Part shown: positions 3,266-38,235 of the stretch, one piece after another | Numbering within the stretch: position 1 is the first letter of the stretch | Layout of the letters: each line of letters begins with the position of its first letter | Made by a program: the position numbers and the translations under genes | Notes under the pieces: model-generated | The model's input: only the letters and a program-made list of their open reading frames with translations | Told to the model about the DNA's origin: nothing | Databases searched by the model: none | NCBI GenBank assembly: GCA_050013655.1 | Contig: JBEKEV010000011.1 | Location: forward strand, 13,703 to 77,702 | Direction of reading: 5' to 3' | DNA length: 64,000 bases | From: Bacteroidota bacterium | GTDB taxonomy: Bacteria; Bacteroidota; Ignavibacteria; UBA10030

Positions 3266-3305
3266 TAATGTTCCTCTTTTGTTTGTATTGAAGGATACTC
3301 AAGCT

Positions 3306-4619: not shown

Positions 4620-4738
4620 ACGATTACTTTCTTATTTTATTGCTAATGTTTTTGCAATAACATTTTCTCTCATAACGAAATAATGACCCACCTGACTGTA
4701 CCTGATATGAACAGGCGGTCATCTAAAATTAGAACACA

Positions 4739-7660: not shown

Positions 7661-7710
7661 TACAATACTGTTTTAAGTTTATTTTAAACAAATCCGATTT
7701 AATACGATTC

Positions 7711-9933
7711 CTATTTTCCTCCTGCAACTGTTTTCTCAAATAGAGATCTTAATAGTTTAGATTGGGGATGATTTTTCCCTACGAGCCGTGTAAAATCATC
7801 CATCGCTGCTTTAGCTTTAGGAATGTCCCGTTTTATTATATATAAAACACAGAGGCAATATATGAGCGATGGATCGTCCTTGATTTCTCGATGAGCTTTC
7901 TCCATGTAGTGTAAGGCTTCAACATTTTTTTGTGAAAAAAGCAGTTTCCCAATAAGAAGATTGGTGTAGGATAGTTCATGAATAGTATTGGCTTCTTTCA
8001 ACACGGCTAACGCTTCTTCCGTTTGTCCATTCTTCCTCAACGTTTCGGCTTCTTCTAAATATGGTTTTATTTTGTTTGGAATGAGGATGACGAGACTTTT
8101 CCCTTCTCCGGATTCGTTAAAGGATGGATCCATTTTTTTAATATCAGCGAGCGTTTTTTCAGCCTCGGAACTAAGACCTGAATCTTTTAGTACGTTGTAT
8201 TTAAGTTTCTGAACCTGCAAATACCTGTTTTCTTCCGAATGCAATTTTTGCAATCGGTCTATACATAGAAGAGCTTCCTTATTATTTTTTTGAGAATAAT
8301 AAATGGAAGCAAGAGTAAATTGAGCATAAAAACTTGTATCAGCATTGGGCGATTCTTGTAAATATCCGATTGCATTGGTGTACTCTTTTGCTTTATACGC
8401 GAGATCGGCTGCGTAATAATAAGATGAAACGTCTGATGGAGAAATATACGCCAACGATAAATACTCCTTCGAGGCGCGCTTGAGATCTCCAATTGATTCA
8501 TAATAGGCAGCCAGTTCTTTATGAACCATACTCGAGCTTACATCTACATACTTTATACAGGTAAATGCTAACGAATCTATCATCCCCTTCGGTGTGTACG
8601 TAGTGCGAAAATTATTTACCGTAGTCTCGGGTTGAAACGGCCACCCGGCCTTCAAATGCTTTATGCGAATAACTGCGATCATACTGTCAAGTTCGGTAAA
8701 TCCCCAGTTGTTCCTGTAATATGTCCATGGTTTCACTCTCGTCGAATCCCAATAATTTTCGATCATCCCATGGTCTCTCAGCGCATTCAGAAAACCTTCA
8801 GCCATTAGAAAATATCCATCAACGTTCGGATGGAGATGGTCGGTCATCAAGCTGTTTCCAATAATACCTTGGGGAGAATATTTTTCAAAAAGGTATTTTA
8901 ACGAGATATGATACAATCCAAGAGAGTCGGCAAGATTTGCAATTATTTTATTGAAATCTTCCGATGCCCTGAACCGGATGACGTCATAATCCTTTGCCCT
9001 GAAATATTCTTCCTTAGCTTTGTCGAACAAATGATCAGCTTCAAGTCGTTTTGCATCGAAAAATAAAGAATCTGCCCTCGGATAAACTTCATAACGTAAT
9101 GAACGAAAAGGAGGCAAATCTCTTACGTTGCTTACAAGGTCACTGATAATGACAGGTACATGTGCTTCTTTTAATTTTCCCAACAAATCACTCATATTAT
9201 CAGAGAATTGCGCCAATCCTTCCAAATACATTTTTGAATTATACGGGATCAAATTCTTACCAACCATTTTTTCCATCATGGTTGCTTGAGCTTCATCTTT
9301 CGTGGTTGGATGCATGAGTTTATAAATGCTTCCAATTCCTTTTTGAAGCAATTGATATGTCCTTACATGAACGATCTTCAAATGCAGCTTCTTGAGGCAC
9401 CGAGGAATTGACCCGTTTTCCATAGAGGCAACACCCAAAGCACCATAGTATTCGTTGTGGCCGGTATATATGAAGACTACATCCGGCTTTTGTTGTAAAA
9501 GTTCATCTGTAAAATCTAGGAGAGTATAACTATTGACTGCAGTCAGACCGAGATTAACAACCTCAATAATGCGGTTGGGAAAAATATTTTGAAGGCGCCG
9601 CTGCAAAATTCTCGTAAATGCAACATTAGCATCGTACGGAAAACCTTGTACTGATGATTCTCCCAAAACGAAAATTCGATACCCGTTGGCTGGCTTCTCT
9701 TTTAAGAATTTTTCCGAAAGTGGTGTGGTATGCTCATATTTACTAAAAAATCTTTCCCCGACATGTCGATTGATTTCGTAGTACTCTGAATCAGGACTAG
9801 GAATAAAGAGGCTCAAATCATCGCCAAATGAGAACAGCCTTAGTGTAAGTTCTAACAATGCTAAGGCGAGGTAAGGTAAAATTACCATCAATGCATAGAA
9901 AGAAACTTTTTTTCGATTTTTGAGCTTAAACAT
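7711..9933 (-). CDS. Membrane-anchored SGNH/GDSL-type hydrolase domain protein with C-terminal TPR repeats
   Basis: N-terminal TM helix; SGNH blocks (VLGESSV, GHNEYY, DHLHPN = DxxH); the C-terminal half is TPR-like (the AYKAKEY, YYSQKNNKEAL repeats). Confidence 0.55.
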   Translation of the reverse strand: MFKLKNRKKVSFYALMVILPYLALALLELTLRLFSFGDDLSLFIPSPDSEYYEINRHVGERFFSKYEHTTPLSEKFLKEKPANGYRIFVLGESSVQGFPYDANVAFTRILQRRLQNIFPNRIIEVVNLGLTAVNSYTLLDFTDELLQQKPDVVFIYTGHNEYYGALGVASMENGSIPRCLKKLHLKIVHVRTYQLLQKGIGSIYKLMHPTTKDEAQATMMEKMVGKNLIPYNSKMYLEGLAQFSDNMSDLLGKLKEAHVPVIISDLVSNVRDLPPFRSLRYEVYPRADSLFFDAKRLEADHLFDKAKEEYFRAKDYDVIRFRASEDFNKIIANLADSLGLYHISLKYLFEKYSPQGIIGNSLMTDHLHPNVDGYFLMAEGFLNALRDHGMIENYWDSTRVKPWTYYRNNWGFTELDSMIAVIRIKHLKAGWPFQPETTVNNFRTTYTPKGMIDSLAFTCIKYVDVSSSMVHKELAAYYESIGDLKRASKEYLSLAYISPSDVSSYYYAADLAYKAKEYTNAIGYLQESPNADTSFYAQFTLASIYYSQKNNKEALLCIDRLQKLHSEENRYLQVQKLKYNVLKDSGLSSEAEKTLADIKKMDPSFNESGEGKSLVILIPNKIKPYLEEAETLRKNGQTEEALAVLKEANTIHELSYTNLLIGKLLFSQKNVEALHYMEKAHREIKDDPSLIYCLCVLYIIKRDIPKAKAAMDDFTRLVGKNHPQSKLLRSLFEKTVAGGK

Positions 9934-10194: not shown

Positions 10195-12186
10195 TCATAC
10201 TTCTAACATTGCATCCTTTTCTGTTATTATTTTTTTCTGCGCTATTGGAGCCCCATTCTCAGACATTGGAAATATGAATTTAGTTTTTTGTTCACCATAC
10301 GAGGCTTCAAGTTTATCCCACCAATTGAACTTTAATATGAGTGAAGTCAGTGCCAACACACCAAGACAGATCATGAACGAATTGAAATCTCGAAGCACTA
10401 AAAATACCGGAGTAGCCATGAGTGTTATCTGCCATATTATTCCGACGAGGATATTTGACATATCACGTTTGAAATTTTTATTCGCTACAAACCCTGGATC
10501 AATTTTCACAACTTTTTCATAGATCGGTTTCCAGAAACCCCAAGGACGAACATTGTGGTAGAACTTCATGAGCACTTCATCACTTTCGGGCTTCGTTAAG
10601 AAGGTAGCAACAAAACATCCAATGATAGAATTGAGGAAGATAAAGGGGAAAGAATTCATACTTGGATTATCGGACAAAGGCCAATGATTCAAGAATGGAA
10701 TGAAACCCAAATTATTCAGTAAAAGCAGAACTAACGAAGTTGCAATACCTGAAACCATTCCCCAAAAATATCCATATCCATTGAAACGCCACCAGTACCA
10801 TTTTAAGACATTGGCTGCTGTATAACCGCCCCATAATGATGCAACAATCCAAAGTGCTGCCTGGTTAATTGATTCGACAAAGAATCCGGTTGTAATTCCG
10901 ACAACAACAACAGCAACAGATGCAATGTAGCTCATCCTGACATATTTTTTGGGATCTGCATGAGGATTGATATAACGCTTATATATATCATTCACAATAT
11001 AAGCAGGTGCAGCATTTACTGTCGCTGCAAAATTACTCATAAATGCTGCTATAAAACCAGCCATGAGCAGACCCAGTAAGCCAACGGGGACATAATTGAC
11101 GAGAACTTCAGATAGAATTCTTTCAAAATCGGGAGTGGTTATTGAGCTTTTATACAGTGTATCAAAATTTGTCAGAGCAAGTACGGTTATACCTGCAACC
11201 ATGAAATAACGAGTTGGATTAAGGACAACACTGACCATGGAATTCATTTTTGCTGCTTCTTTCGGACTTCGGGTTGAAAGAATTCGCTGCATATCATAAT
11301 TAGGTGCAGGACCCGCTGCGGCAACAAAGAACCCTTTGAAAAGCATCATTCCAAAAAATAATCCAAAAACAGAATAGCCATCTGTTTTAATCCACTGATT
11401 AAATGCGACTACCTTTGTGGCAAGACTTGAATGCACTGTCGACCAGTCCAGATTCAAGTTCATACCAAACGCCATACTTTTCCAACCTTCCGGTATGACA
11501 TTATTAATCATGGTGGGGGAAACATGAACCATTGCTATAATACCGATTGCAACCGCCGAAATTGAAAGAATGCAATATTGAATAATTTCCGTTGCAACAA
11601 CGCTCATCATCCCCCCTTTCACAACATACAATGTTGTTATACCCATGAGTATAAGAGCATAAAGATTTGCATTGATTTGAGGGTAGTGAGCCAAAGTTTC
11701 CGGATTAGTTACCAAGGCAGGCAGAAATGCAACAGCAAATTTTCCAATTCCTTTAAACCCATAAGAGAGAAATCCAATAACACTAATGAGAGCAAATATC
11801 ACTACTACGATATGGGAAAGTGTAGCGCCCCTCCCCGTCCCAAAACGGGTCTTCATCCATTCTGCACCCGTCATCACATTTGATCTTCGCAGCCAAGGAG
11901 ATAAATAGACCATTAAAAATATTTGATTAAACACCGGCCATATCCAAGGTATCCAAATACTTTTCATTCCATACACAGAAAGCCAATAGACTAAAAGCAT
12001 CGTGCCGGAAATATCAAACATACCTGAAGCATCAGAAATGCCAAGAACCCACCAAGGGATGCGGTTACCTCCAAGGAAGTAACTATTCATATCCTTGGTA
12101 GCTTTTTTAGAAATATAAAATCCAATAAATATTGTAGAAGTCAAATATAAAAGGATAATTCCGATATCAATGATATGAAGATTCAT
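10195..12186 (-). CDS. Sodium:solute symporter (SSS family)
   Basis: 663 aa with about 13 hydrophobic helices; N-terminal FLGGNRIPWWVLGIS block typical of SSS/SGLT transporters. Confidence 0.75.
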   Translation of the reverse strand: MNLHIIDIGIILLYLTSTIFIGFYISKKATKDMNSYFLGGNRIPWWVLGISDASGMFDISGTMLLVYWLSVYGMKSIWIPWIWPVFNQIFLMVYLSPWLRRSNVMTGAEWMKTRFGTGRGATLSHIVVVIFALISVIGFLSYGFKGIGKFAVAFLPALVTNPETLAHYPQINANLYALILMGITTLYVVKGGMMSVVATEIIQYCILSISAVAIGIIAMVHVSPTMINNVIPEGWKSMAFGMNLNLDWSTVHSSLATKVVAFNQWIKTDGYSVFGLFFGMMLFKGFFVAAAGPAPNYDMQRILSTRSPKEAAKMNSMVSVVLNPTRYFMVAGITVLALTNFDTLYKSSITTPDFERILSEVLVNYVPVGLLGLLMAGFIAAFMSNFAATVNAAPAYIVNDIYKRYINPHADPKKYVRMSYIASVAVVVVGITTGFFVESINQAALWIVASLWGGYTAANVLKWYWWRFNGYGYFWGMVSGIATSLVLLLLNNLGFIPFLNHWPLSDNPSMNSFPFIFLNSIIGCFVATFLTKPESDEVLMKFYHNVRPWGFWKPIYEKVVKIDPGFVANKNFKRDMSNILVGIIWQITLMATPVFLVLRDFNSFMICLGVLALTSLILKFNWWDKLEASYGEQKTKFIFPMSENGAPIAQKKIITEKDAMLEV

Positions 12187-12285: not shown

Positions 12286-14133
12286 TTATTTAAGCAACAT
12301 CATCTTCTTTGCTAATACTGTGCTTCCGGCTTCTAATTTATAGAAATAAACACCACTCGAAAGGTTCTTTGCATTAAAAGTAACGGCCTGAGGTCCAGCA
12401 TTCCTCATTCCATTTACCAATACTGCAACTTCCTCTCCTAATAAATTATACACTGCGAGCCTTACTTTCTCACTTTTCACAAGCGTGAAAGAAATTTCGG
12501 TAGACGGGTTGAATGGATTGGGATAGTTCTGATCCAGTTTGTAACTACTGACGACAGACGATGGCTGTTGTTTCACGCCGACAGTAATTGCAGTAGAACT
12601 AAGAATAGCATTGCCCCAATTCGCAGTTACCTGATAATCATTATTGCTTGGAGAATACCACCAATTTGAAGTATGTATACGACTACCTGCAGCAGTAGGT
12701 GTAATATCGTTATCATCCGTTTGCAATTGGAAACTGAATACCTTGGTACCAGATGTTCTATCAGCAGTTGTGAATCCTAAGCTATCCAGATTAAATTTAA
12801 ATGCTACCCGGTAGCCAGACCTGGAATTGAACATAGTATCGTTTTCTAACCCTTGATTGAAAAGTTTCCAATTATATTGGAGTCCCTTTCCGATATGATC
12901 TGCATAGGTTAACACATTCATCACAGAATCACGCGGTTGTGCCGGTCTGAGATTAAATTGATACGCGCGAGATGTAGGTGGATTTGTAGCATCGGCACCT
13001 CTGCCTACTACGGTTGTTGTAGATGTATGAGTATGGTTTGCATCGGTGAAAAACTCGATACCATCCATTTGCCAATCGATAGCGGTTACGGTATCAATAA
13101 CGTCGTCGTAGACTGTGAAAAGACCATAGATATATTGATTATCGTAGAGTCCATAGAATCTCCATCCTTGATCTTGCGGATTAGCACCGCTTGTAACACC
13201 GCTACTATTTGTGATATAATCCATAGTAAGCTGATTTGCTTGTTGCCAAACATTATCAATAGTACCATCCAAGGCAGGCGGCGTCGGAGTTTTTAGGAAC
13301 ACGTAATTTGTATCGATCAAATCACCAAAAACGGCATCGCCCCAACCCACAGTTGCCTGATAATCAGTATTTTGCGTTGAGGAGTTCCAATTCAGAATAT
13401 GGATACGACTACCTGCAGCAGTAGGTGTGACATCGTTATCATCTATTTGCAACTGGAGACTAACCTTTTTTCCAACGGCTACAGACCCAAGGCCTAAACT
13501 ATCCAGGTTAAAAGAAAACTCCACAAAATAACCACTTGGACCGCCATTACTTATAGACGATGTATCCAACATCCATTTATATTGGAGTCCCTTTCCGATA
13601 TGATCTGCATAGGTTAACACATTCATCACAGAATCAATCGGTTGTGCCGGTCTGAGATTGAATTGATACGCGCGAGAGGTAGGTGGATTAGTGGCATCGG
13701 CACCTCTGCCTACTACGGTTGTTTGAGATGTATGTGTATTATTTGCATCGATGTAAAACTCGATACCATCCATTTGCCAATCGATAGTGGTTACGGTATC
13801 AATCACATCATCCTGAACATAAAACAATCCATAGATTTTAGTACCATCATACAAAAATTTAGCCCAGCCGGAACAATCTGACCAGTCGGTTGGATAGCTA
13901 CCATTTTGTGGTAAAACATATTGCATCCATGTAGCATCTACGAGATTCCAAATTTGATCCTTCGTATAGTTGCCGATCGTCGGTGCAAGGCTCGTGCTTA
14001 TCTTCGGAATGATCAAAGCGCCGTCATTTGCGCCGCCTTTTATAATTTTCGCTTGAGCAATACCGACTACCAGAACTAATACAATAACAAAAAGTAAAAT
14101 TCTGTGTAACCTCATGACGTGTTTCTCCTTCAC
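12286..14133 (-). CDS. Secreted T9SS-sorted protein built from two tandem copies of a domain of about 235 aa; probably carbohydrate-binding, and the resemblance to CBM9/DOMON is not certain
   Basis: Signal peptide; two internal repeats (…TIDWQMDGIEF…VVGRGADATNPPTSRAYQFNLRPAQP…LTYADHIGKGLQY…DDNDxTPTAAGSRIH…); C-terminal KLDQNYPNPFNPSTEISF...YFYKLEAG T9SS tail. Confidence 0.6.
   Translation of the reverse strand: MKEKHVMRLHRILLFVIVLVLVVGIAQAKIIKGGANDGALIIPKISTSLAPTIGNYTKDQIWNLVDATWMQYVLPQNGSYPTDWSDCSGWAKFLYDGTKIYGLFYVQDDVIDTVTTIDWQMDGIEFYIDANNTHTSQTTVVGRGADATNPPTSRAYQFNLRPAQPIDSVMNVLTYADHIGKGLQYKWMLDTSSISNGGPSGYFVEFSFNLDSLGLGSVAVGKKVSLQLQIDDNDVTPTAAGSRIHILNWNSSTQNTDYQATVGWGDAVFGDLIDTNYVFLKTPTPPALDGTIDNVWQQANQLTMDYITNSSGVTSGANPQDQGWRFYGLYDNQYIYGLFTVYDDVIDTVTAIDWQMDGIEFFTDANHTHTSTTTVVGRGADATNPPTSRAYQFNLRPAQPRDSVMNVLTYADHIGKGLQYNWKLFNQGLENDTMFNSRSGYRVAFKFNLDSLGFTTADRTSGTKVFSFQLQTDDNDITPTAAGSRIHTSNWWYSPSNNDYQVTANWGNAILSSTAITVGVKQQPSSVVSSYKLDQNYPNPFNPSTEISFTLVKSEKVRLAVYNLLGEEVAVLVNGMRNAGPQAVTFNAKNLSSGVYFYKLEAGSTVLAKKMMLLK
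12874..13805. repeat. Intragenic tandem duplication with a period of about 704 bp; the core copies 12874..13100 and 13578..13805 are about 90% identical at nucleotide level, while the rest of each unit has diverged
   Basis: Direct comparison of the two stretches (tatattggagtccctttccgatatgatctgcataggttaacacattcatcacagaatca...). The plus-strand ORFs 12937..13296 and 13642..13881 are antisense shadows of the repeat. Confidence 0.8.
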
Positions 14134-14292: not shown

Positions 14293-15570
14293 TTATGGGA
14301 GATTCCGGCCAAGATATGGAGCACCAAGCAACGGTGTATTATCTTCTTTTGCCATTCCTATTTTATATAGGCTAGTTGCCGTAGATGATCTTAGATATAA
14401 ATATCTTCCCCCACCCCAAATAAGTTGACTAATCCCTGTAGGCAAAATATTGTTATAGTAATAAGGTAAAAGGGAACCGTTCTCCAGTATATATAAAGAA
14501 TAGTTTGCATTACCAAGAAGAGAAACTAAAACCGTACCGTCAGAGGCAAAATTAAAAGAACTTACGGTACAACCTCTTAAACTTGTATCAGCTGCTATAT
14601 TGACGACCGGTTGTTTACTTCCAACAGTACCGTCAGGATTGATTGGACTTCTGAATAAGCTTGTCGCATCAGCTGCATAGACGTAACCATTATATATACG
14701 AATTCCTACGAATGTAGTACCAGCATAGTCGGCACTGCCAACAACAACCGGTGTTGTCGATCCTTGTTTTATTAAAATCAATCCACTTTTTGATCCATTA
14801 AAATAGATATCTCCGTTACTATTGAAATCAAATACTGAAGAACTGTAAGCTGCAGAAAATGTTACATAGGCTATAGGCGTAGCACTAGCAGTATCAAGTT
14901 GATAAATTGATTTGGATCCGGCGAATGTAGCATACAAGAATCCATGAGGCCCGAATTTCATGTCAGAAAAGGCTTTGACAAAATCTGTTGCTTTATTATT
15001 AATTTTTGTCTTAAAGTAAGAAGTATCTTTATATGGAATTAAATCAATTCCATTAGGCTTTAACATAGTGATATAACCCGTACTCGCTATCCATAGAGTG
15101 TCACCCCCAGCCGTACCATTTTTGTTTGCTTCCATTACACCAACGATTCCCGTCGGTATGCCGGTCAGGTCAGATGAGCTTATTGGAGATTCCAAGTTAT
15201 ATGAAAACTTACCTACAGAATCTGCTTGAAGAATGACTGCATTAATCGTTAAAGCTCCAGAAATGACCGGCCTGTAGACAACCAAAGTATCGGCAGCAGC
15301 TGACATCCGTTTTATAATCGCTTGTTCTGATCCGAAATAAATCCAATTCGAATCAAGCTTACTGGAGAATTTTCCTATGATTGAAATTTCTCTCACTCCA
15401 GCAAGAGCAGAATTTGCCGGCAATACACCTGTAATAACAGATCCGGTTGCATAAGATCTATTGGGATCCCACATTGTTGGAGGAGTCGAGAAATTGTTGC
15501 ATGCACTCAGGACAACAAGCATGAGAATAAAAAGACCGAAAACAAAATAAAATATAATTTTTCTTTTCAT
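14293..15570 (-). CDS. Hypothetical lipoprotein, beta-propeller-like
   Basis: Signal peptide with lipobox (VVLSAC); repetitive YxxAxD/NGDIYF-type motifs; no recognisable catalytic motif. Confidence 0.45.
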   Translation of the reverse strand: MKRKIIFYFVFGLFILMLVVLSACNNFSTPPTMWDPNRSYATGSVITGVLPANSALAGVREISIIGKFSSKLDSNWIYFGSEQAIIKRMSAAADTLVVYRPVISGALTINAVILQADSVGKFSYNLESPISSSDLTGIPTGIVGVMEANKNGTAGGDTLWIASTGYITMLKPNGIDLIPYKDTSYFKTKINNKATDFVKAFSDMKFGPHGFLYATFAGSKSIYQLDTASATPIAYVTFSAAYSSSVFDFNSNGDIYFNGSKSGLILIKQGSTTPVVVGSADYAGTTFVGIRIYNGYVYAADATSLFRSPINPDGTVGSKQPVVNIAADTSLRGCTVSSFNFASDGTVLVSLLGNANYSLYILENGSLLPYYYNNILPTGISQLIWGGGRYLYLRSSTATSLYKIGMAKEDNTPLLGAPYLGRNLP

Positions 15571-15589
15571 AATGATACCATTCTATATT

Positions 15590-16609
15590 TTACATTGAGA
15601 AAGATACTGTAAATCTTTGGACATTATTAAATACTCCAAAAGGCGTATAGGAATAATCAATCTGAAAATTGGCGGAAGATATACCTAAACCGGAAGATGA
15701 AATTCCTAAACCATACGTAACTCCATCTTCATCATCCCCGGTAATATACCCGCCCCGTAATGCAATTAAATTCATAAATTGATACTCTACACCTATTTTT
15801 ATTTGTTCCGGATGAGACATGGGATGGGTAACATCGCATGAGAGAATCAAAGATTGTTTCGGCCCCTTCAAATCGTAGAAATCAAAAAGATTTGCCGATA
15901 TACCGACAGTAAATATTAATGGAAGCTGGAAACTTTCTTCTTCGTAAGTAACATCATTTGAAAAATTCCTTATCGACATTCCAAAATCAATACTTTTGAT
16001 ACCTGTTTTAAAATTTGTACCGAAGTCATACGCAACCGCACTTGCTACGTTCTGTTTGGTAACTACCGTGTTCGCAGCAGTGGGCACTGCACTTTTTCCC
16101 AACGATTGATAGGCAAATCGAACTTGAGCGCCGACACCAAAACGATCAGAGATCATTTTTGCATACCCGATCCCTATCGCCATTGCAGTTGGGTCCATAG
16201 TACCGGTGTCAATATACCCCTGGCTATTATTCCACACCATTGTTCCCAATACGTCGCCATAATCGACAGATTGAAAACTCAGGCCAAGAACACCGTAATC
16301 TCCAGACCAAGGGGATATGATAGCGCTACAAGATAAATATTTAATATCTGCTATCCATTTATTAACGCTCACATTAGCAGTAAAAAAATTTGGCATTTCA
16401 GCCATCGTTGCCGGATTATGAGTTAATGCCGCCGAACAACCGAAGAGCGAATTCACAGCATCACCCATAGCGCCAGCTCTTGCATCAGATGATATGCTAA
16501 GAAAATCGAAACCGGTCTGCGCTAACTTTTCTTGTTGACCATAGGATAGAGATGCAGACAATCCGATTATCATAATCACTGTCAGGTATGTTATTATTAA
16601 TCGTTTCAC
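15590..16609 (-). CDS. Outer-membrane beta-barrel protein of the FadL-like / PorV-PorQ type; possibly a T9SS-associated outer-membrane protein
   Basis: Signal peptide ending ...SYGQQ; N-terminal FLSISSDARAGAMGDAVNS resembles the FadL/PorV family entry motif; alternating hydrophobic pattern; aromatic C-terminus (FTVSFSM). Confidence 0.4.
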   Translation of the reverse strand: MKRLIITYLTVIMIIGLSASLSYGQQEKLAQTGFDFLSISSDARAGAMGDAVNSLFGCSAALTHNPATMAEMPNFFTANVSVNKWIADIKYLSCSAIISPWSGDYGVLGLSFQSVDYGDVLGTMVWNNSQGYIDTGTMDPTAMAIGIGYAKMISDRFGVGAQVRFAYQSLGKSAVPTAANTVVTKQNVASAVAYDFGTNFKTGIKSIDFGMSIRNFSNDVTYEEESFQLPLIFTVGISANLFDFYDLKGPKQSLILSCDVTHPMSHPEQIKIGVEYQFMNLIALRGGYITGDDEDGVTYGLGISSSGLGISSANFQIDYSYTPFGVFNNVQRFTVSFSM

Positions 16610-16641
16610 CTTCTTATTTCTCCTGTTTAGAATGCCACCTG

Positions 16642-17526
16642 CTAGTACGACAAAATGACGACTTTAAATTGATTGGCTATGCTATTACTTGGACTTGCTG
16701 GTGTTGGATTACTTATTTGCGACGGATTAGTTAATGTGAACCGGACCAAGTAAACACTCCCTTGATCGAGATGAATAGTATAACGTGCACTAATAACTGG
16801 TACAATTTCTATTTTGTTGTTACCCGACAAGATTCTTTCGCTGGAATTATATGCTGATTCTGTCGATATCGTTGACGAAGGGCTTACAACCGACGTATCT
16901 CTTTTCACAAGGTCAATCGAAACATAATCATTAATATTAGAGGTTGCGTTTGTGGCATTATAATAATAAAGCAAACTCGTATAGAAATATATATCCTTCG
17001 CTTGGGCAGATTTCAATACTGCATAGCTTACCTTGCCTGAATAGTTTACGGCTATTAACGAATCTTGATGAAGTTCCGGAAGGACAGCTGCCAATGAGTC
17101 AAATCCTGATAGAATAATCTGATTATCAATTGTATCTCCGAGACTCTGAGAGTGAACAATGGACCAAGTAACAGGTAAAGATCGAAATGAAACAGGAGTA
17201 GGCGGCGTCGAATTGCTTAAACTGATCGGCTGGCCTGAGCCGTCAAGCGGAACATACTGATAAGAGGCTGTAAAACCTTGAACATCATTGAGAGTATCAC
17301 TCGTTAATAAATTACCTGCCTTTAAATCAATATCCGATGGAGTAAAATTTTTGGCTTTGAAGTCAGTTGGTAACAAACTATTACACCCAAGGCATGCGAA
17401 AAATAATGCACTCACCAGAAATAGGAAAATAGAGCGAACATAACTATCTTGATAATGAGGGTACATTTCGTTCTCCAAATAATTTGTATTATCTGATAAT
17501 GATAAATTTCCGGATGATATTCTCAC
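16642..17526 (-). CDS. Hypothetical lipoprotein (the likely start is the internal Met at about 17466)
   Basis: An internal signal peptide with lipobox (FFACLGC) follows a 20-aa leader; Ser/Thr-rich; no known domain recognised. Confidence 0.4.
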   Translation of the reverse strand: MRISSGNLSLSDNTNYLENEMYPHYQDSYVRSIFLFLVSALFFACLGCNSLLPTDFKAKNFTPSDIDLKAGNLLTSDTLNDVQGFTASYQYVPLDGSGQPISLSNSTPPTPVSFRSLPVTWSIVHSQSLGDTIDNQIILSGFDSLAAVLPELHQDSLIAVNYSGKVSYAVLKSAQAKDIYFYTSLLYYYNATNATSNINDYVSIDLVKRDTSVVSPSSTISTESAYNSSERILSGNNKIEIVPVISARYTIHLDQGSVYLVRFTLTNPSQISNPTPASPSNSIANQFKVVILSY

Positions 17527-19783
17527 CCTTTCTCAAAATCAATTGATTACTCGTATCGTCATAAATATCTTGTGTAACTTCGAAATATGCAATATATAAC
17601 CCACTCACTACAATTTGCTTAGAAGAAGTCAGTGAATTCCATGTTTCATCACCGCTTCCATTTGTATGATTGATGGTCTGAATCAAATCCCCTGCTTCAG
17701 TAAATATTTTAATCACACAATATTTTGGCAACCCAAAAAATGCAAGCCGGTTTGCTACCGTTCTATCCGTGCCGAATTGAAGTGATGCTGCTTTGATATT
17801 GTATGGATTAGGAACTACTCGAATATCTGAAAGCTTATTGGCAGCTGGTCGCTGCAATGAAGCAGATATATTGGTCATCGTATAGAACATGTTACTTACC
17901 AAAGGCACGCCGGGTTCAATATCGTTTGTTGTCCCATTATCCTTGGTTTGGATATAATAAAAGTAGTTAAATCCTCGTTTTGCTGATTTATCATCATAGG
18001 AATTCGTTACAGTGCTCTTATCACAAGAAAATATCAACTCGAATTTTGTAGCGGTTGTAGTTTCTGCACGATACAGCCGATACCCGTCAAAAGTAGGCCA
18101 CGATTCTGCACTCTTAGACCATTGCAACGAAATTCTATCACCGCCCGATGTCACTGTAAAATCATCCGGCGGTGGCGGAGGCTGAGGAATATTGTAATGA
18201 CTGTTGTAGTTTGCTCGTGCACGCCGAAATGTTTGGAACAATGAATCCCTTCCACTAAACACCCAGGCATTCTTATAGATATTACCATCTGTAGTCGTGC
18301 CTCCATTCCAGGGATTCCAGGACCCTACAGGAAGTGTAGGGTCAGTAGAAGGAAGAGTAAGAGGTATCGTATTACCACTTTTACCATTTTGATACCAGGG
18401 CCACCAGCTCTTTACTATTTCGATATTTTTTTCACGACTTATTCCTGCAACTGCCTCGGCAATAACAATCCGGATACTATCGCCTGGTGCAAGTGTATAT
18501 GGCCCAAATCCCTGCTGGTTGCCATACCCGCCCGTATTTCCACCCCACGTATTGCCAAAACCTGTGGGCCATCCGTTTGCATCTTTTCCAAGTTGTTCGG
18601 CATGAGTTTTTGCATCATGACCGGATGTCATTGATTGATATTGCTGCGTCATGGTAATTGGATTAAACGGACTTGACTGAGTGATATTTTCTATGACACC
18701 ATCCGAACCCATAAATGTCGTCGTTCGCGGCTGGGTAGGATCATTTGCAGTGTCCTGCGGGGATGTATCTGCATGTAATACCATTTCACCTGTAAATCCG
18801 ATGCCACCCAGAATATGTCCATCCAGAAAATCTGGCGCACCAATATCATCCAACACTCCTGTCGAAGAAGATTGAGGTCCATAATATGCAAAGCTCGCAC
18901 AAAAATTATTCGGAGCAGGAAGTGTATGTGTCGCATCTTGTCCCACTGCATCATTGATAGTGTTATGTCCATAACTGATTTGGGGATATCCCCATGCCTG
19001 CTCATAGCCCTCATTATTATCGGCAAACCGATATCTGAAATCAAATACCACACCGGTCAGTGTTTTTGCCGGCGTGATTTGCCCTCCGGTATTATCGCTC
19101 AAACCCGTATTCTTAAAAACATATTCGTAGATGTAATAATTATCGTGGTACTGTTGCGTAGAGGCGAGGACTTTTCTATAGATTGTTATACCTATCGGTG
19201 TATTCACACTGTTGTAGACCATTCGATCCACAGGCAAATTTGAAACAATTCGATCTTGATCTGCCCCTCCCTCAGTAATAGCTTGATTAAGATCATTCGC
19301 CATAGTAGGTTGAGTAAGATCATTCTGATCAAGATCACTGGCTTTATTGCCATCTACGATAACCGTAGGCGCAGCAGAACGGCCAATCAATTTAAAATTT
19401 ACTGGATAGGAAGCAGAATTGACATACAGTGCCGCTCGTCCAAGAGGAATGACTTTGTAAGGATATGTTACACCATTTGTTGGATCTGTAAAATTCGTTG
19501 TACCAATCCATAATGCTTTTCCCACATTATGATCCGTAGACGGATATTGCGCAGGCCAGCGTAAGCCATCATCCTGATCTGTATTTAAATAACCCCTCCC
19601 CCTTCTGCCGTATTCAACTTCAGCACCAGTGCTGGAAAAATATTGCCGTAAAGAACTCACCCATAACCATTTAACGACCTGCGGTCCAAAAACCTGGGCT
19701 TGTAATTGCTGGGTAGTAATTATTCCATATGCACTATACAGCGAAATTACTATGAGAGCTTTTGCCAGATATTTTTTAATCAT
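17489..19783 (-). CDS. Large secreted protein with poly-Pro linker, FN3-like domain and a variant T9SS C-terminal domain; function unknown
   Basis: Signal peptide; PQPPPPPDDFTVTSGGDRISLQW (FN3-like); C-terminus VVPNPYN...VIKIFTEAGDLIQTI...SGLYIAYFEV...RKFIIIR resembles a Por secretion tail. Confidence 0.5.
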   Translation of the reverse strand: MIKKYLAKALIVISLYSAYGIITTQQLQAQVFGPQVVKWLWVSSLRQYFSSTGAEVEYGRRGRGYLNTDQDDGLRWPAQYPSTDHNVGKALWIGTTNFTDPTNGVTYPYKVIPLGRAALYVNSASYPVNFKLIGRSAAPTVIVDGNKASDLDQNDLTQPTMANDLNQAITEGGADQDRIVSNLPVDRMVYNSVNTPIGITIYRKVLASTQQYHDNYYIYEYVFKNTGLSDNTGGQITPAKTLTGVVFDFRYRFADNNEGYEQAWGYPQISYGHNTINDAVGQDATHTLPAPNNFCASFAYYGPQSSSTGVLDDIGAPDFLDGHILGGIGFTGEMVLHADTSPQDTANDPTQPRTTTFMGSDGVIENITQSSPFNPITMTQQYQSMTSGHDAKTHAEQLGKDANGWPTGFGNTWGGNTGGYGNQQGFGPYTLAPGDSIRIVIAEAVAGISREKNIEIVKSWWPWYQNGKSGNTIPLTLPSTDPTLPVGSWNPWNGGTTTDGNIYKNAWVFSGRDSLFQTFRRARANYNSHYNIPQPPPPPDDFTVTSGGDRISLQWSKSAESWPTFDGYRLYRAETTTATKFELIFSCDKSTVTNSYDDKSAKRGFNYFYYIQTKDNGTTNDIEPGVPLVSNMFYTMTNISASLQRPAANKLSDIRVVPNPYNIKAASLQFGTDRTVANRLAFFGLPKYCVIKIFTEAGDLIQTINHTNGSGDETWNSLTSSKQIVVSGLYIAYFEVTQDIYDDTSNQLILRKGENIIRKFIIIR

Positions 19784-19817: not shown

Positions 19818-22800
19818 TTATAAATTAAACGATAGATTAATGCCATAGTAAAATTGTCTTGGATTCAGAAAATCAAAGGAACTGTTGTTCGGCATATCGA
19901 TATATTCCTTATTATCTAAAATCTTTTTCATCTTGTTTTGATCTACTACAGACCAGCTACCATTGATATAGTTCATATATCTACCAGTTGGACTATCATA
20001 ATAGATAACAGTAGGATCGAAAGCAGATGATTGTGTATTGATTCCGTTTACGTTTCCGCTAAAAAGAATCGGAGTATATACGCCATCTGTACAATATGCC
20101 CCTACCCGATCATTGCCAGGAATATTTGTATTACTATATGCAGGGCTTTGAGGTAAATGCAGCGATTCCATATAAAAATTGAAGTCGCTCGGATCATAGA
20201 AGCTTTCTCCCGACAACCTCTTCGCATTCAATAAGTTGTTCGTCTCCATGAACACCGTTACTGCAAAATTTTTGAAAGAGAAAGTTTTATTGAGGCGAAT
20301 GTTTACATTGAAATAATCTGTAACCTGAACGTTATTTTGGATAGCGGTGGCTAGCTGCGGATTATATGTAAGCCATTGACCGGCTTTCCAGTTTGCTACG
20401 ATATTAAGAGACCAATCACCCAGAAGATCACCTCCGAGGAAATGAGGCCCAAAATTTATCGGTGTTAAAAACGTAATACTTGCATTAGCACGAGGTTGGG
20501 CAACCGGTGTTTGTCGAACAAGCAGATATAACGGATTCGTCTGACTATTGTCGAGTATTGCTTGTTCGGCTGGATTATCAGCAATGGCTACTTGGCCAAA
20601 TTGACCCGACGTTGCCACTTGGTATATGTAATTAATAAAACCCCGTACCCAGTCACCGGAAGTTTTTCTGAGAGTTAACTCAAGTCCTCGAACATCCGAA
20701 TAGCTATTGTTGTTGGCTGCATAGTAAGCAATACTTTTCTGATCACTCGTATAAAATGTAAATGCCTGCTGAGATGAAATATCATTATAAAAAGCTGCAA
20801 TTTGAATCAAGTATGTATCAAAGAGAGACTGATCAAAACCTAATTCATAAGAGACGGTTTGAGCTTGTGGCAAATTCGGATCACCATAATTGCGCAAATC
20901 GCCTGCTTGTCCACGACCTATTCTGTAAATCTCATCATAGGAAGGCATCTCTTTAAAGTGTCCGTAATTAAAATACAGTTTTGAACTTTCTGTAATCGGA
21001 TGCGAAATACCTAATCGGGGACTGAAAGAAATGTCAGTCTTAACACGTTCTTTCGCATATTGAATAGTATCATTATAGGCAGCGGAGAAAAAGGATTGAT
21101 TAAAAGGATCCGCAGCAGCATCAACCCAATCAGTATTTGGATTGCTTATGTCCATTCTTACGCCGAGATTGGCGATAAATCCATATGCTTCTATCTTATC
21201 CTGTACATACGCAGAGATAAGGTAGGGATTGAAATGCTGTTTCACCCAATCCACATCACTGAAAGCCGGATTCACTGTACCATAATTCATATTAAGATCG
21301 TAATATGAAAATTCAAATCCTGCTTTAAACATATGCTCTTTAGTAGCTTGACTTGTTATATCTCCCTTAATTTTCAGCGTATTCAGCTTGCTGGAATCAC
21401 GTGCAGTAGCACTGTGACCACCAAAGAATAAAGACGCATCTCCAATACCTGATGTCAGCTGAGAACTATATCCGTAAGGTGCTTCATCAACAAAATACCC
21501 CGGAGCTATTTCATAATTTTGGGCAGTATCCCTTGCAGCAATAGGTCCCGTGAGATAGCTACGATGTTCATCTTGTATACTTATTTCATAATACGTCGAT
21601 AAGCTTAACATAGAAGTGATTTTTGCACCTACATTGAAATCACTGACAACTGCCGGACAATACCAAGAATCATCATATACCCTGCTTGACCTTTGTTCAT
21701 ACGTAATACCAGCTATTTGATCTGGTGTTCGCAGATAGTCTGTCGGATTCCAAAATGGGTAAGTCCCTGGAGCCTGTGTGAGCCAAGCCTGATTGTAATA
21801 TCCGTTATCAGTCGCGTTAATAGCGACATTATAGGATTTACCTATCGAGGCATTTAGCAACAGTTTCGTTTTGTTGTTTATATCTGAATTCAACTTAATT
21901 GACCAGTTATAATCCTCATAATCTGGACGGCTGAGAGGAATAAGAAGCATTTCTTTGTTCATAATAAAACTTGTAAAGAACCGAAGATTGCCCAAATCCT
22001 CACCAATGATTGGTATAGGCCCGCCAATACTACCGTCAATATTATAATCGGGTGAGTTCGTAGAAGGAGTTAGTCTATGTTGGTACTCATAGAGACGTTG
22101 ACACGCTGCGGGCGAAAGATCAATACCCTGTTGCAAATATTGTTGAGAAATAGCGTTCCAGCCGACAAACTTAGGATATTGATTCTGAGTATATATGCTC
22201 CATGCCCCGTTATTAGTACCCGTCCAACAAACGGCAGGGTCCATATAGGGGCGGTTCCACATCGAATTAGGATCATACTCAGACATTCCGAAATATTTCT
22301 GTTGTGGAGGACTGTACTTTACATTTATGGAACCAGAATAATGAGAAACATCCCCTTCCTTTTGGACGATATTTACAACACCGGAGCGCGCCTGTCCATA
22401 CTCTGCGGCAAAACCTCCCTTTTCTATCGAAACTTCCTGAATGGAAGTTAAGGCAATATTAGAAATAGGTTTATTGTTTCTGGGATCACGTTGAGTTGTA
22501 CCATCTACATTAAGAAGCATGTCGCTTGCGTTGCCGCCTCTAATGACAAAACCATCTTCCACTCCTGCTTGCAAGCCCACCATATCATTAATCGAAGTTA
22601 CGGGAAGAATTGTCAATTCCTCAGGCTGTACTGTACTGACACTGGAGGATACATCCTTTTTGACGACGTGTCTTTCAGCAACAACTTCAACAATTCCCGA
22701 TTCAATTGCTTGAGTCTCCATTTCAACGTTAACAGTTGCAGTTTGATCTATAAGAACACGTATTCCATTCACAGTGACCGTCGAATAACCAACCATACTT

Positions 22801-23039
22801 GTTATAATATTATGGATACCAGGCGGAACAGATAGAATTGCATAGTACCCATCAATATCTGTGGCCGCGCCCAGAGATGTTCCCTTAACAATGACATTAA
22901 GGCCGACAAGCGGTTCACGAGTTTCTTTGTCCACAACTCTGCCAGCTATTTTTCCTGTCGTCCCTGCTAAAATAATATTTACCGTCAGTGCAAAAAGTAA
23001 GGCAAAATAGATAAGAATTCGGTATTGACCCGATACCAT
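19818..23039 (-). CDS. TonB-dependent outer-membrane receptor, SusC-like, with N-terminal CarboxypepD_reg domain and no SusD partner
   Basis: 1073 aa; GKIAGRVVDKETREPLVGLNVIVKGTSLGAATDIDGYYAI (CarbopepD_reg); a TonB-box-like VEVVAER; plug and long beta-barrel; C-terminal aromatic residue; strong AAGGAG Shine-Dalgarno. Confidence 0.8.
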   Translation of the reverse strand: MVSGQYRILIYFALLFALTVNIILAGTTGKIAGRVVDKETREPLVGLNVIVKGTSLGAATDIDGYYAILSVPPGIHNIITSMVGYSTVTVNGIRVLIDQTATVNVEMETQAIESGIVEVVAERHVVKKDVSSSVSTVQPEELTILPVTSINDMVGLQAGVEDGFVIRGGNASDMLLNVDGTTQRDPRNNKPISNIALTSIQEVSIEKGGFAAEYGQARSGVVNIVQKEGDVSHYSGSINVKYSPPQQKYFGMSEYDPNSMWNRPYMDPAVCWTGTNNGAWSIYTQNQYPKFVGWNAISQQYLQQGIDLSPAACQRLYEYQHRLTPSTNSPDYNIDGSIGGPIPIIGEDLGNLRFFTSFIMNKEMLLIPLSRPDYEDYNWSIKLNSDINNKTKLLLNASIGKSYNVAINATDNGYYNQAWLTQAPGTYPFWNPTDYLRTPDQIAGITYEQRSSRVYDDSWYCPAVVSDFNVGAKITSMLSLSTYYEISIQDEHRSYLTGPIAARDTAQNYEIAPGYFVDEAPYGYSSQLTSGIGDASLFFGGHSATARDSSKLNTLKIKGDITSQATKEHMFKAGFEFSYYDLNMNYGTVNPAFSDVDWVKQHFNPYLISAYVQDKIEAYGFIANLGVRMDISNPNTDWVDAAADPFNQSFFSAAYNDTIQYAKERVKTDISFSPRLGISHPITESSKLYFNYGHFKEMPSYDEIYRIGRGQAGDLRNYGDPNLPQAQTVSYELGFDQSLFDTYLIQIAAFYNDISSQQAFTFYTSDQKSIAYYAANNNSYSDVRGLELTLRKTSGDWVRGFINYIYQVATSGQFGQVAIADNPAEQAILDNSQTNPLYLLVRQTPVAQPRANASITFLTPINFGPHFLGGDLLGDWSLNIVANWKAGQWLTYNPQLATAIQNNVQVTDYFNVNIRLNKTFSFKNFAVTVFMETNNLLNAKRLSGESFYDPSDFNFYMESLHLPQSPAYSNTNIPGNDRVGAYCTDGVYTPILFSGNVNGINTQSSAFDPTVIYYDSPTGRYMNYINGSWSVVDQNKMKKILDNKEYIDMPNNSSFDFLNPRQFYYGINLSFNL

Positions 23040-23392
23040 AGACTTTCTCCTTTAATAAATTCTTTCTAGTCCAACTCTATATTATCTAACAAAATAAATA
23101 ATTGCCTATCTACAATAACTTAAAAATCGACACAATGATTCTTTAATATTCAGATGTTCTATCTTTGTTATGCGAGAATTTATATTTTGGATTCTTTGAA
23201 ATGAATTTACAATATATTGATTTTGTACTCTAATGAAATCGAATGAACTGCTTCTTAACGCGTTTCGATACATCAATGCAAAGAACACTATACTTAAATG
23301 AAGAATATTTCTGATTACGGAACCCGAATTGAGGCAAGCATTACAACCACAATGCCTTTTCAAAATATAACACCTTTCTTCAAATCCTTTTC

Positions 23393-23408
23393 CGCAACAT
23401 CTGTACCA
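23393..23408 (-). promoter_or_regulatory. Candidate sigma54 (-24/-12) promoter for the TonB-receptor operon
   Basis: Minus-strand TGGTACAGATGTTGCG has GG and GC elements at the canonical 12-nt offset (consensus TGGCAC-N5-TTGCW). It lies about 350 nt upstream of the receptor ATG, next to the sigma54-activator gene. Confidence 0.35.
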
Positions 23409-23524
23409 AGTAAAAATCCGGTTTTTTCTGCGAGAGTTAGTAAGTAAGTTAGGAGGGATTATTATGCTAATAATGACTGCATTATCAGCCATGATAATTG
23501 ACCTAAGGGAATAAATATCTAGAG

Positions 23525-34498: not shown

Positions 34499-34529
34499 GT
34501 TCTCCGTTAATTATTTTTGAACGAAAGCA

Positions 34530-36029: not shown

Positions 36030-36092
36030 AAAAATCTCCTAACCTTGATACACCGATGAGTTTGTAATTATTATAAATTCTTATTAAAGATG

Positions 36093-38219: not shown

Positions 38220-38235
38220 ACATCCACCTGAGTTA

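Follow-up and report, generated by a model that had tools for sequence, protein, structure and literature searches.

A conserved TonB-dependent receptor cassette with a PorV/PorQ-family barrel and a probable role in sugar uptake without SusD

Gene content of the locus

The window, i.e., the whole stretch of DNA analyzed here, covers 64,000 nt from a Bacteroidota bacterium (UBA10030; GCA_050013655.1, contig JBEKEV010000011.1, positions 13,703–77,702). It encodes on the minus strand a TonB-dependent receptor (TBDR) of 1073 aa (19818..23039; assigned by Pfam), followed by four ORFs on the same strand, termed A, B, C, and D. The first-pass annotation had described ORFs of 764, 294, 339, and 425 aa behind the receptor, and all four are present. 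Protein A (764 aa; 17489..19783) lies outside the Pfam and NCBIfam families. Protein B has 294 aa as the longest ORF (16642–17526, with a GTG start at 17526), but 274 aa when read from the ATG at 17466 (16642..17466), which is the start matched to homologues. Protein C (339 aa; 15590..16609) is an outer-membrane β-barrel of the PorV/PorQ family, and protein D (425 aa; 14293..15570) is a lipoprotein with a TIG domain and a β-propeller.

The genes are separated by 34 nt (TBDR–A), 22 nt (A–B, with B starting at ATG 17466), 32 nt (B–C), and 19 nt (C–D), and 159 nt separate D from the next gene. The gene spacing and overlaps of 19–38 nt noted earlier are thus retained as spacers of 19–34 nt, whereas the 38-nt overlap of A and B is an artefact of the longest-ORF call at GTG 17526: homologues of B start at the position of ATG 17466, which has a GGAG 6 nt upstream. 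A search of the locus for promoter and terminator signals yielded none that was convincing, and a sigma-54 signal was likewise not established.

The cassette sits inside a putative β-glucan locus in which all assignments are by Pfam and all genes are on the minus strand. Upstream of the TBDR are genes for a solute-binding-protein-like sensor (SBP; 26557–27885), a histidine kinase (HK; 25058–26560), and a sigma-54-dependent response regulator (23573–25036), a trio that is conserved at this place in Ignavibacteria-type loci. Downstream of D, a CBM9 protein with a canonical type IX secretion system (T9SS) C-terminal domain (CTD) (12286..14133; CBM9_1 and Por_Secre_tail) fills a slot that is conserved by synteny and is occupied in distant loci by a protein with a propeller and a canonical CTD. 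It is followed by a sodium:solute symporter (SSF; 10195..12186), which is kept downstream in related loci and is likely the inner-membrane importer of the locus. Next come a GDSL/TPR protein (7711–9933), a GH3 protein with CBM6 and a CTD (4739–7660), a GH5 protein with a CTD (3306–4619), and a GH94 cellobiose/cellodextrin phosphorylase (827–3265). This downstream enzyme set (827..9933) recurs in locus L001 and other loci; GH5, GH3, GH94, CBM9, SSF, and the regulators are found both in the window and in relatives, and GH18 occurs in one distant locus. No T9SS core genes lie within the 64-kb window; the four canonical-CTD proteins that it encodes imply the presence of a T9SS in the organism.

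Domain composition of the receptor and proteins A–D

The TBDR consists of a signal peptide, a CarboxypepD_reg-like N-terminal domain, a plug, and a large barrel, with Pfam matches to CarbopepD_reg_2, CarboxypepD_reg, and Plug. Its earlier description as SusC-like applies to this N-terminal architecture, but not to the SusC/RagA family as defined by TIGR04056, against which it scores 96.4 bits (cutoff 368.25) with only residues 30–497 aligned. Sequence matches in the PDB are marginal and limited to the plug and a SusC N-terminal domain (9hfj). Neither A, B, C, and D nor the other scanned ORFs of the window have a SusD-type Pfam or NCBIfam match.

Protein A agrees with its earlier description as a secreted protein with a poly-Pro linker, an FN3 domain, and a variant T9SS tail. 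A hydrophobic N-terminus (residues 1–29; 19697–19783, minus strand, as for the domains that follow), modelled by AF2 as a helix over residues 2–22, forms a Sec signal peptide that ends in a nearly invariant A29–Q30. It precedes a β-rich N-domain with two long C-terminal helices (residues ~30–530; 18194–19696), a PPPPP linker, FN3 (residues ~541–645; 17849–18163), and a probable variant type-A CTD (residues ~652–764; 17492–17830). The AF2 model (pLDDT 86.7, pTM 0.84) shows the CTD as a β-sandwich, and the FN3–CTD region matches PorZ (5m11). As a single sequence, A has no match to PF18962 or TIGR04183 (Por_Secre_tail) even at E ≤ 10, and Pfam and NCBIfam searches with A, whole and in pieces, gave no family. 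Some A homologues, however, match PF18962 or CHU_C, and in hhalign the profile of the A CTD aligns with the canonical CTD profile (92%, E 6.5e-7), and the PNP, IxIY, and SGxY motifs are in register. The variant is distinguished by an insertion that follows the PNPY strand and by a C-terminal extension ending in KFIIIR.

For the size of the A family, one search gave 792 matches, another at least 575 species genomes, and a third 452 clusters (50% identity, E ≤ 1e-30). Its N-domain is unusually conserved, with a mean identity of 52% across phyla, whereas SusD-like binders diverge strongly, and a structural or enzymatic role is therefore possible. That A belongs to a new CAZyme family and works as a surface enzyme, not as a binder or lid, with the cassette coupling this enzyme to an importer, we consider quite unlikely. 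Many invariant residues of the N-domain are acidic, basic, or aromatic (e.g., E55, E57, D144, D155, D186, R187, R203, D339, and D361; H337 is nearly invariant), as might be expected of an enzyme, and in other secreted proteins the A-domain is fused to β-helix/pectinesterase-like and BNR/sortilin modules. Foldseek searches with the N-domain return weak matches to glycan-active enzymes (GH94 enzymes, cyclic-glucan synthase, and dextran dextrinase), but the query TM of ~0.2 is low, perhaps reflecting generic β-sandwiches. The N-domain has no confident structural relative, so that glycan binding by A is putative. Further arguments against an enzyme come from the family searches, which recognized no catalytic family or motif in A, as annotated earlier, and from the differing CAZyme sets that accompany the A family (GH94/GH5/GH3 in some loci, GH18 in another).

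Protein B carries the lipobox LGC, and the lipobox alignment gives a mature N-terminus of C-[DN]-S-x-LP-x-[DE]-[FY]-K. Its annotation as a lipoprotein thus stands, with 274 aa in place of 294. B is a fast-evolving, optional member of the cassette with only 24 direct homologues and no relatives found in Pfam or the PDB; the 39 loci in which an iterated profile detects it all have it between A and C.

Protein C matches the NCBIfam PorV/PorQ family model NF033709 over its full length (residues 31–339) with 187 bits (cutoff 90), in agreement with its earlier assignment as a FadL/PorV-like barrel. It also has a weak Pfam PorV match and a weak PDB match to PorV (6h3i_F). With the equivalog models (NF033710, NF033711) it remains below the cutoffs (85 vs. 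250 for PorV, 80 vs. 220 for PorQ), and it scores 41 vs. 325 for PorV2; judged by these scores, C is a paralogue distinct from the housekeeping PorV, PorQ, and PorV2.

In protein D, an invariant lipobox Cys24 (by alignment) is followed by an IPT/TIG domain (about residues 45–134; PF01833 in homologues), a propeller of the 6-bladed type (about residues 140–410), and a conserved C-terminal motif, GAPY[LY]GR. The AF2 model has a pLDDT of 85.7. The best whole-length Foldseek matches (4hw6, 3tc9, 3hrp, and 3kya) have E values of 1e-12 to 1e-10, those at 1e-12 (4hw6, 3tc9, and 3hrp) spanning about 445 columns, and BtuG (8bai) is also matched. These features bear out the proposed β-propeller-like lipoprotein. 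The four best matches are Bacteroides 'auxiliary nutrient binding proteins' (4hw6 is BACOVA_00264, 3tc9 is BT_3476), which share with D the order of lipoprotein, TIG domain, and β-propeller over the whole length; identity is only 9–12%, and the GAPY[LY]GR motif is D's own. The residues after the lipid-bearing cysteine (C-N-x-F) are unlike the acidic signal for export that Bacteroidia typically have. Of the four proteins, all first considered uncharacterized, A and B lack a curated family.

Conservation of the cassette and the pairing of A with C

The order TBDR–A–(B)–C–D recurs across phyla of the FCB group, in 81 loci of other genomes from Ignavibacteria, Melioribacteraceae, Kryptoniota, KSB1, Calditrichota, Neomarinimicrobiota/Fidelibacterota, and WOR-3; these loci were chosen through A, and counts drawn from them therefore depend on ascertainment and phylogeny. 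Because the same order recurs in these loci, the arrangement is far beyond chance, and the earlier view of the four genes and the receptor as a single unit is supported by gene order. With T for the TBDR, the architectures are TACD (32), TABCD (19), TAbCD (14), TAC (10), and TAD (6). The suggested check of co-occurrence with the receptor gave a uniform result: each of the 98 assessable A genes is immediately preceded by a TBDR gene. C lies within 1.3 kb of A for 84 of 102 A genes.

D is missing from about a quarter of the units, whereas A is never apart from the TBDR. This difference weighs against an arrangement in which D, as a BtuG-like propeller lipoprotein, would be the lid of the TBDR, and A a distal capture arm on a stalk formed by the poly-Pro linker and FN3. 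We regard this arrangement as rather doubtful, although the stalk-like region of A and the resemblance of the D propeller to BtuG surface lipoproteins and to lipoproteins of polysaccharide utilization loci (PULs) would suit it, and the A N-domain and D have the highest correlation of distance matrices (r = 0.81). BtuG–BtuB provides a precedent for a propeller lipoprotein that partners a TonB-dependent transporter (TBDT).

C is tied specifically to protein A: in the same 81 loci, a PorV-like gene comes next after 83 of the 91 variant-CTD genes but after none of the 62 canonical-CTD genes. The eight A genes without a C gene of their own all adjoin another TBDR–A–C unit, and their variant CTD is intact. 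A second class of protein (L079:1552-4353), which has only the poly-Pro stretch, FN3, and the variant CTD in common with A, likewise has a TBDR-like gene and a barrel passing the Pfam PorV model as its neighbors. Conversely, two A-domain proteins with a canonical Por_Secre_tail (P0202 and P0257, the two for which the context was examined) adjoin neither a TBDR gene nor a PorV-like gene. A therefore appears to be a secreted protein paired with its own PorV-like barrel. The first-pass suggestion of a PorV-like shuttle for the T9SS cargo of the locus is accordingly upheld for the link to A (83/91), but not for canonical-CTD cargo (0/62).

What C would do for A is a separate question, as the adjacency counts would be equally expected were C merely a dedicated secretion shuttle, from which A passes on to CTD cleavage and is LPS-anchored or released with no stable A–C complex. 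Such a transient, private shuttle would accord with the description of PorV as a shuttle (PMC10202324) and with the sub-threshold scores of C in both the PorV and the PorQ equivalog models. We nevertheless hold it to be unlikely: the known private barrels (PorQ for PorZ, PorP/SprF-like proteins for type-B cargo) are anchors (PMC10202324). Tandem arrays contain fewer C than A genes, which would speak against a shuttle yet is compatible with either model. High CTD conservation in A is no argument for retention, as the canonical CTD of the neighboring CBM9 protein is equally conserved, and the distance matrices of the A CTD and C correlate (r = 0.57) no more highly than those of other pairs.

A candidate glycan capture and import module

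Sugar capture and import at the cell surface, with no SusD as the customary partner, is the probable function of the cassette. Somewhat in preference to all else, and by analogy with known systems, we propose that TBDR–A–B–C–D captures and imports glycans as a module lacking SusD, with A leaving through the T9SS and then being held by C as PorZ is by PorQ. It would be a single outer-membrane machine for glycan fragments that does the job of SusC/SusD/SusE-F of Bacteroidia with other parts, and the substrate here would most likely be β-glucan or cello-oligosaccharides. The T9SS-secreted GH5, GH3–CBM6, and CBM9 proteins would act at the surface. The divergent type-A CTD would take A out via the T9SS and stay on barrel C instead of being passed to the general PorV/PorU pathway, and the large β-rich domain of A would thereby be parked beside the TBDR, which we infer it may cap. 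Lipoproteins B and D may be further glycan-binding or assembly subunits, presumably on the surface. Oligosaccharides would enter the periplasm via the TBDR, the SSF symporter and GH94 phosphorylase would complete uptake and catabolism, and the operon would be controlled by the SBP–HK–sigma-54 regulator trio.

The surface binding or feeding role suggested earlier fits the context of CAZymes, transporter, and regulators and the match of D to PUL lipoproteins. It is very unlikely that the cassette instead works in a different TonB-dependent process, for example protein export by a Myxococcus Oar-like transporter or uptake of another nutrient. The TBDR is no bona fide SusC, a Myxococcus TBDT whose N-terminal domain is similar is reported to export a protease (PMC6434023), and many distant loci have no recognizable CAZyme beside the cassette; however, in Ignavibacteria, Melioribacteraceae, and several loci of Calditrichia/KSB1 the cassette is consistently accompanied by CAZymes, sugar symporters, and sugar-type regulators, and D resembles nutrient-binding lipoproteins.

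The cassette shares with the SusC/SusD PULs of Bacteroidia a TBDR with a CarboxypepD_reg-like N-terminal domain and an obligate partner gene directly after it, additional, presumably surface-exposed lipoproteins (cf. SusE/F or SGBP-B), tandem duplication of receptor–partner pairs, and the co-location of CAZymes with a sugar transporter of the inner membrane and a sensor/regulator. It differs in that it lacks a SusD-family protein and its receptor fails the SusC/RagA model, in that partner A, with its FN3 domain and CTD, is of the Sec/T9SS type and not a lipoprotein, and in that it includes a PorV/PorQ-family barrel. PorZ and PorU keep their CTDs, which bind to PorQ and PorV, and it has been proposed that cognate PorV-like barrels shield CTDs from cleavage (PMC10202324). 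As in PorQ–PorZ, PorV–PorU, and the PorP/SprF-like barrels with type-B CTDs, a CTD-bearing, presumably surface-exposed protein is paired here, by gene linkage, with a putative cognate barrel. Unlike PorQ–PorZ and PorV–PorU, the A–C pair lies in a predicted nutrient-uptake operon with a TBDR and not among the secretion machinery, C falls below the PorV and PorQ equivalog cutoffs, and the CTD of A is a distinct variant.

No description of the TBDR–A–B–C–D cassette was found in the searchable literature. A SusD-less 'atypical PUL' for cellulose, chu_1276–chu_1280 of Cytophaga hutchinsonii, encodes a TBDT-like protein and a second outer-membrane protein, two β-sandwich SGBP-B-like proteins, and an endoglucanase, and is reported only in three close relatives (PMC12016534). 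Compared by description only, both systems are SusD-less with a TBDT-type protein; the cassette, in contrast, spans several phyla and has a PorV-like barrel with a T9SS-CTD partner, a combination not described for the chu cluster (PMC12016534).

Organization and Setting of the Receptor Cassette

The gene for the TonB-dependent receptor (TBDR, 1073 aa; 19818–23039, minus strand) lies directly upstream of four minus-strand ORFs encoding the envelope proteins A (764 aa; 17489–19783), B (294 aa as the longest ORF; 16642–17526), C (339 aa; 15590–16609), and D (425 aa; 14293–15570). ORF calling in 14293–19783 returns these four with exactly the sizes reported in the first-pass annotation. The spacers measure 34 nt between TBDR and A, 32 nt between B and C, and 19 nt between C and D, and D is separated from the next gene by 159 nt. 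The ORF of B stands, but its formerly described 38-nt overlap with A does not: homologues of B start at the ATG at 17466, which is preceded by GGAG 6 nt upstream, so B is about 274 aa long and the overlap becomes a 22-nt spacer.

The window derives from an Ignavibacteria-type MAG, and its left half is a single same-strand sugar-utilisation region. A solute-binding-protein-like sensor, a histidine kinase, and a sigma-54 response regulator precede TBDR, A, B, C, and D, which are followed by a CBM9 protein with a canonical C-terminal domain (CTD) for type IX secretion (T9SS), a Na+/solute symporter, a GDSL/TPR protein, a GH3+CBM6+CTD protein, a GH5+CTD protein, and a GH94 phosphorylase. This gene context argues for a locus that would be used for β-glucan or cellodextrin. 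An identical order minus B is present in one 3.64-Mb genome and, among the matches listed, the nearest locus (92% identity) belongs to an ‘Ignavibacteriae bacterium’ fen MAG.

Scans for sigma-70 promoters and for terminators gave background level only. A sigma-54 −24/−12 element upstream of TBDR was considered and rejected, as the one match carries two mismatches, occurs at chance frequency, and is kept only in the closest relative. A 128-aa ORF (23106–23492, minus strand) lies in the 533 nt that separate TBDR from the sigma-54 response regulator; it has no family match, and a counterpart is detectable only in the closest relative, locus L002. A 2-mismatch sigma-54-like element (TGGTACAGATGTTGC) inside this ORF is also kept only in L002.

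Family A is widespread. A word-indexed search yielded 792 matches, at least 575 loci were confirmed in contigs representing one genome per species, and clustering at 50% identity (E ≤ 1e-30) gave 452 clusters. Database entries label the members ‘hypothetical’ or ‘FN3 domain-containing’. The matches listed are from Ignavibacteria, Melioribacteraceae, Kryptoniota, KSB1, Calditrichota, Neomarinimicrobiota/Fidelibacterota, WOR-3, and unclassified Bacteroidota. Loci L001, L012, and L013 carry the cassette within the clade of Melioribacter roseus and Ignavibacterium relatives.

For comparison, ORFs were called in 81 loci with 102 A genes and searched with the window proteins; these loci were selected through A and come from genomes related to one another. 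Co-occurrence with the TonB receptor across genomes, which the first-pass annotation had put forward as a check, is borne out in this set, where TBDR is immediately upstream of A in all 98 assessable A genes. C is found within 1.3 kb downstream of A in 84/102 cases, and D is next in 67 of these 84. With T for TBDR and b for a B homologue found by profile only, the units are distributed as TACD (32), TABCD (19), TAbCD (14), TAC (10), TAD (6), and TA- (4), and roughly three quarters of units include D. Units often occur in tandem arrays, and all eight A genes that lack their own C adjoin another T-A-C unit and have a normal variant CTD (the divergent tail of A described below). In distant loci the place after D is occupied by a protein of about 450 aa composed of a propeller and a canonical CTD. 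One distant locus has a GH18 chitinase, which indicates that the cassette is not limited to β-glucan.

Synteny excludes the chance adjacency of unrelated genes. The multi-phylum TBDR-A-(B)-C-D cassette is real and not an artefact, and its five genes very probably constitute one conserved functional module. As a separate observation, a composite array, T-A-(b)-C-T-A-D and then a CTD protein, recurs in four loci (L049, L057, L059, and L081) and looks like a second receptor–partner pair inserted between C and D.

Proteins of the Cassette

No Pfam or NCBIfam family matched A whole or in three pieces, and searching 34 family members yielded nothing useful; the profile of A returned only marginal FN3 matches from PDB sequences. 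The AF2 model of A is confident (pLDDT 86.7, pTM 0.84) and comprises a signal peptide, a large β-rich domain (residues ~30–530) with two long helices at its end, a PPPPP linker, an FN3 domain, and a C-terminal β-sandwich. The tail is best read as a divergent type-A CTD: when a profile built from 103 A-type C-termini was compared with one built from 76 canonical T9SS CTDs of the same loci, the two matched at 92% probability (E 6.5e-7), and their PNP, IxIY, and SGxY motifs aligned. Two features set this variant CTD apart: an insertion that follows the first strand and an extension at the C-terminus that ends in KFIIIR. Foldseek aligned the FN3+CTD region with tandem FN3 structures and with PorZ (5m11). 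For the N-terminal domain, Foldseek hits in the PDB (GH94 phosphorylases, cyclic glucan synthase, and dextran dextrinase) reached a TM of only ~0.2 and were rejected as fold assignments. This domain is unusually conserved across phyla (mean identity 52%) and has many invariant charged residues, a degree of conservation that would also suit an enzymatic or structural role.

B is a fast-evolving lipoprotein for which a direct search detected only 24 relatives. An iterated profile places it in 39 comparison loci, invariably between A and C, and its mature N-terminus is conserved as C-[DN]-S-x-LP-x-[DE]-[FY]-K. B has no relative in Pfam or, when searched as a single sequence, in the PDB. A and B are two families without annotation.

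C matches the PorV/PorQ family model NF033709 over its full length (187 bits; cutoff 90). Its scores are well under all three equivalog cutoffs (PorV, 85 vs. 250 bits; PorQ, 80 vs. 220; PorV2, 41 vs. 325), and C is therefore a distinct, dedicated PorV/PorQ paralogue. Against the PDB, the single sequence of C gave only marginal PorV matches, and that of TBDR only marginal plug matches.

D is a β-propeller lipoprotein with an invariant Cys24 (AF2 model confident, pLDDT 85.7); homologues contain an IPT/TIG domain (PF01833). D has 100% identity to ABSA44_12825, an NCBI protein from a ‘Bacteroidota bacterium’ MAG. Among PDB structures, those that best match D along its whole length (4hw6, 3tc9, 3hrp, and 3kya; E 1e-12 to 1e-10) are Bacteroides structural-genomics lipoproteins, two of which (4hw6 and 3tc9) are titled ‘auxiliary nutrient binding protein’. 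The structure matches also include BtuG propeller lipoproteins, which are partners of the BtuB transporter. A profile of D gave only marginal propeller matches among PDB sequences. The extreme C-terminus of D, GAPY[LY]GR (14293–14340), is kept across phyla, whereas identity elsewhere in D falls to ~25%; this motif may be a docking peptide.

Variant CTDs, PorV-Like Barrels, and a Proposed Model for Glycan Uptake

The variant CTD is specifically linked to a PorV-like gene. In the A-selected loci, such a gene follows 83 of 91 variant-CTD genes but none of the 62 canonical-CTD genes of the same loci (Fisher p = 2e-34), and TBDR is upstream of 97/98 variant-CTD genes compared with 0/74 canonical-CTD genes. 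A second class of proteins, A2 (for example, L079:1552–4353, 933 aa), which has no Pfam match, shares with A only the poly-Pro stretch, the FN3 domain, and the variant CTD, and is flanked by a TBDR-like gene and a barrel that passes the Pfam PorV model (46 bits vs. 27). Conversely, the N-terminal domain of A also occurs in long secreted proteins that have β-helix/PMP or BNR/sortilin modules and end in a canonical Por_Secre_tail; in the two whose context was examined, neither TBDR nor a PorV-like gene adjoins. The barrel is therefore tied to the CTD and not to the body of A, the canonical-tail side of this comparison consisting of the two proteins checked. Deeply divergent triads of TBDR, A2 (up to 933 aa), and PorV-like genes lie in L079:2–5385, L043:1–2900, and L053:2682–3887.

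A T9SS is implied for this organism by the four canonical CTD proteins encoded in the window. Retained CTDs are known for PorZ on PorQ and for PorU on PorV, and cognate PorV-like barrels have been suggested to shield CTDs from cleavage (PMC10202324). By these precedents, binding between the CTD of A and C is proposed: A would be exported by T9SS and its CTD would stay bound to C, the N-terminal domain would sit beside or over TBDR, and B and D would be accessory surface subunits. Retention of the CTD as an anchor on C is a possibility that falls somewhat short of being probable. The distance-matrix correlation between the CTD of A and C is not above that of other pairs; the strongest is between the N-terminal domain of A and D (r = 0.81). 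The argument that the CTD is retained because it is the most conserved part of A was dismissed, since conservation is just as high in the canonical CTD of neighbouring CBM9 orthologues. A, as the invariable partner, and D, which resembles BtuG, are both candidates for a TBDR cap.

The first-pass annotation had suggested a cell-surface feeding complex or a PorV-like shuttle dedicated to the T9SS cargo of the locus. That interpretation is partly supported and is sharpened here: on balance, a SusD-less outer-membrane machine for glycan capture and import is the somewhat favoured overall model for the cassette. In a more tentative and specific proposal, the partner of glycan-importing TBDTs across the non-Bacteroidia FCB phyla would be delivered by T9SS and would remain anchored to a PorV-like barrel of its own by a specialised CTD that is not cleaved, giving a two-barrel ‘utilisome’ (TBDR plus C) that is capped by A and decorated by B and D. 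Such a utilisome, if real, would take up glycans across the outer membrane independently of SusD and would put T9SS and its PorV paralogues to a new structural use.

The cassette would work like a SusCD-type PUL, but its receptor fails the SusC-family TBDT model TIGR04056 and a SusD protein is absent. The A–C pair resembles PorZ–PorQ; however, the equivalog thresholds make C neither PorQ nor PorV, and the pair belongs to a putative nutrient operon. The cassette is rated as joining TBDT-centred glycan utilisation with the cognate-barrel pairing of T9SS. The closest published concept, compared by description only, is the ‘atypical PUL’ chu_1276–1280 of C. hutchinsonii, which consists of a TBDT-like protein, an outer-membrane protein, two SGBP-B-like proteins, and an endoglucanase, and for which no PorV-like or CTD partner is described (PMC12016534). 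No description of the cassette was found in the open literature searched on TonB, PorV, and T9SS in Ignavibacteria, Melioribacter, Caldithrix, KSB1, and Fidelibacterota, and it goes unmentioned in the Melioribacter and Caldithrix genome papers.

As polymer degraders, Ignavibacteria, KSB1, Calditrichota, and Marinimicrobia/Fidelibacterota abound in soils, sediments, and the ocean. PUL finders, however, look for SusC/SusD pairs and so often fail to recognise the loci of these groups as PULs. The conserved TBDR-A-(B)-C-D signature would mark glycan-uptake loci in these four groups, and would define A and B, at a minimum, as unannotated protein families, along with a functional subfamily of PorV/PorQ barrels. 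The cassette would also offer a tractable test of whether cognate PorV-like barrels keep the CTD of a specific T9SS cargo as a membrane anchor.

Other Features of the Window

In the 1-kb gap between the sensor solute-binding-protein gene and an SSF symporter gene, two short minus-strand ORFs (28192–28487), separated by a frame change, have an IS200/Y1-transposase-like motif (HLSKDHVHLMVSVPP...LVQYLKGKSSRK) and look like a decayed transposase remnant. At 30684–31830 (minus strand), ORFs for the C-terminal part of a GHMP kinase and for a cytidylyltransferase overlap by 74 nt and may represent a frameshifted or fused gene. A 191-aa ORF at 43356–43931 (minus strand) encodes only the C-terminal part of a GH27 α-galactosidase (Melibiase_2 positions 209–284 of 284, plus Melibiase_C); no N-terminal GH27 part was found upstream, and the gene is probably truncated.

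The strand switches at 50000–61100 (plus strand), where the GC content is 0.49–0.52 compared with about 0.40. The genes here encode an M28 peptidase, an ABC-2 transporter pair, a CarboxypepD_reg+OMP_b-brl_3 barrel, and an S8 subtilase with a canonical T9SS CTD, and the region looks like a separate neighbourhood of protein-degradation type. A second sugar region (32102–49824, minus strand) encodes another GH94 protein, an MFS transporter, GH3, an aldo/keto reductase, GH2, GH5, GalT, GalK, an SSF symporter, and a LacI regulator, and the window is therefore a large carbohydrate-utilisation island.
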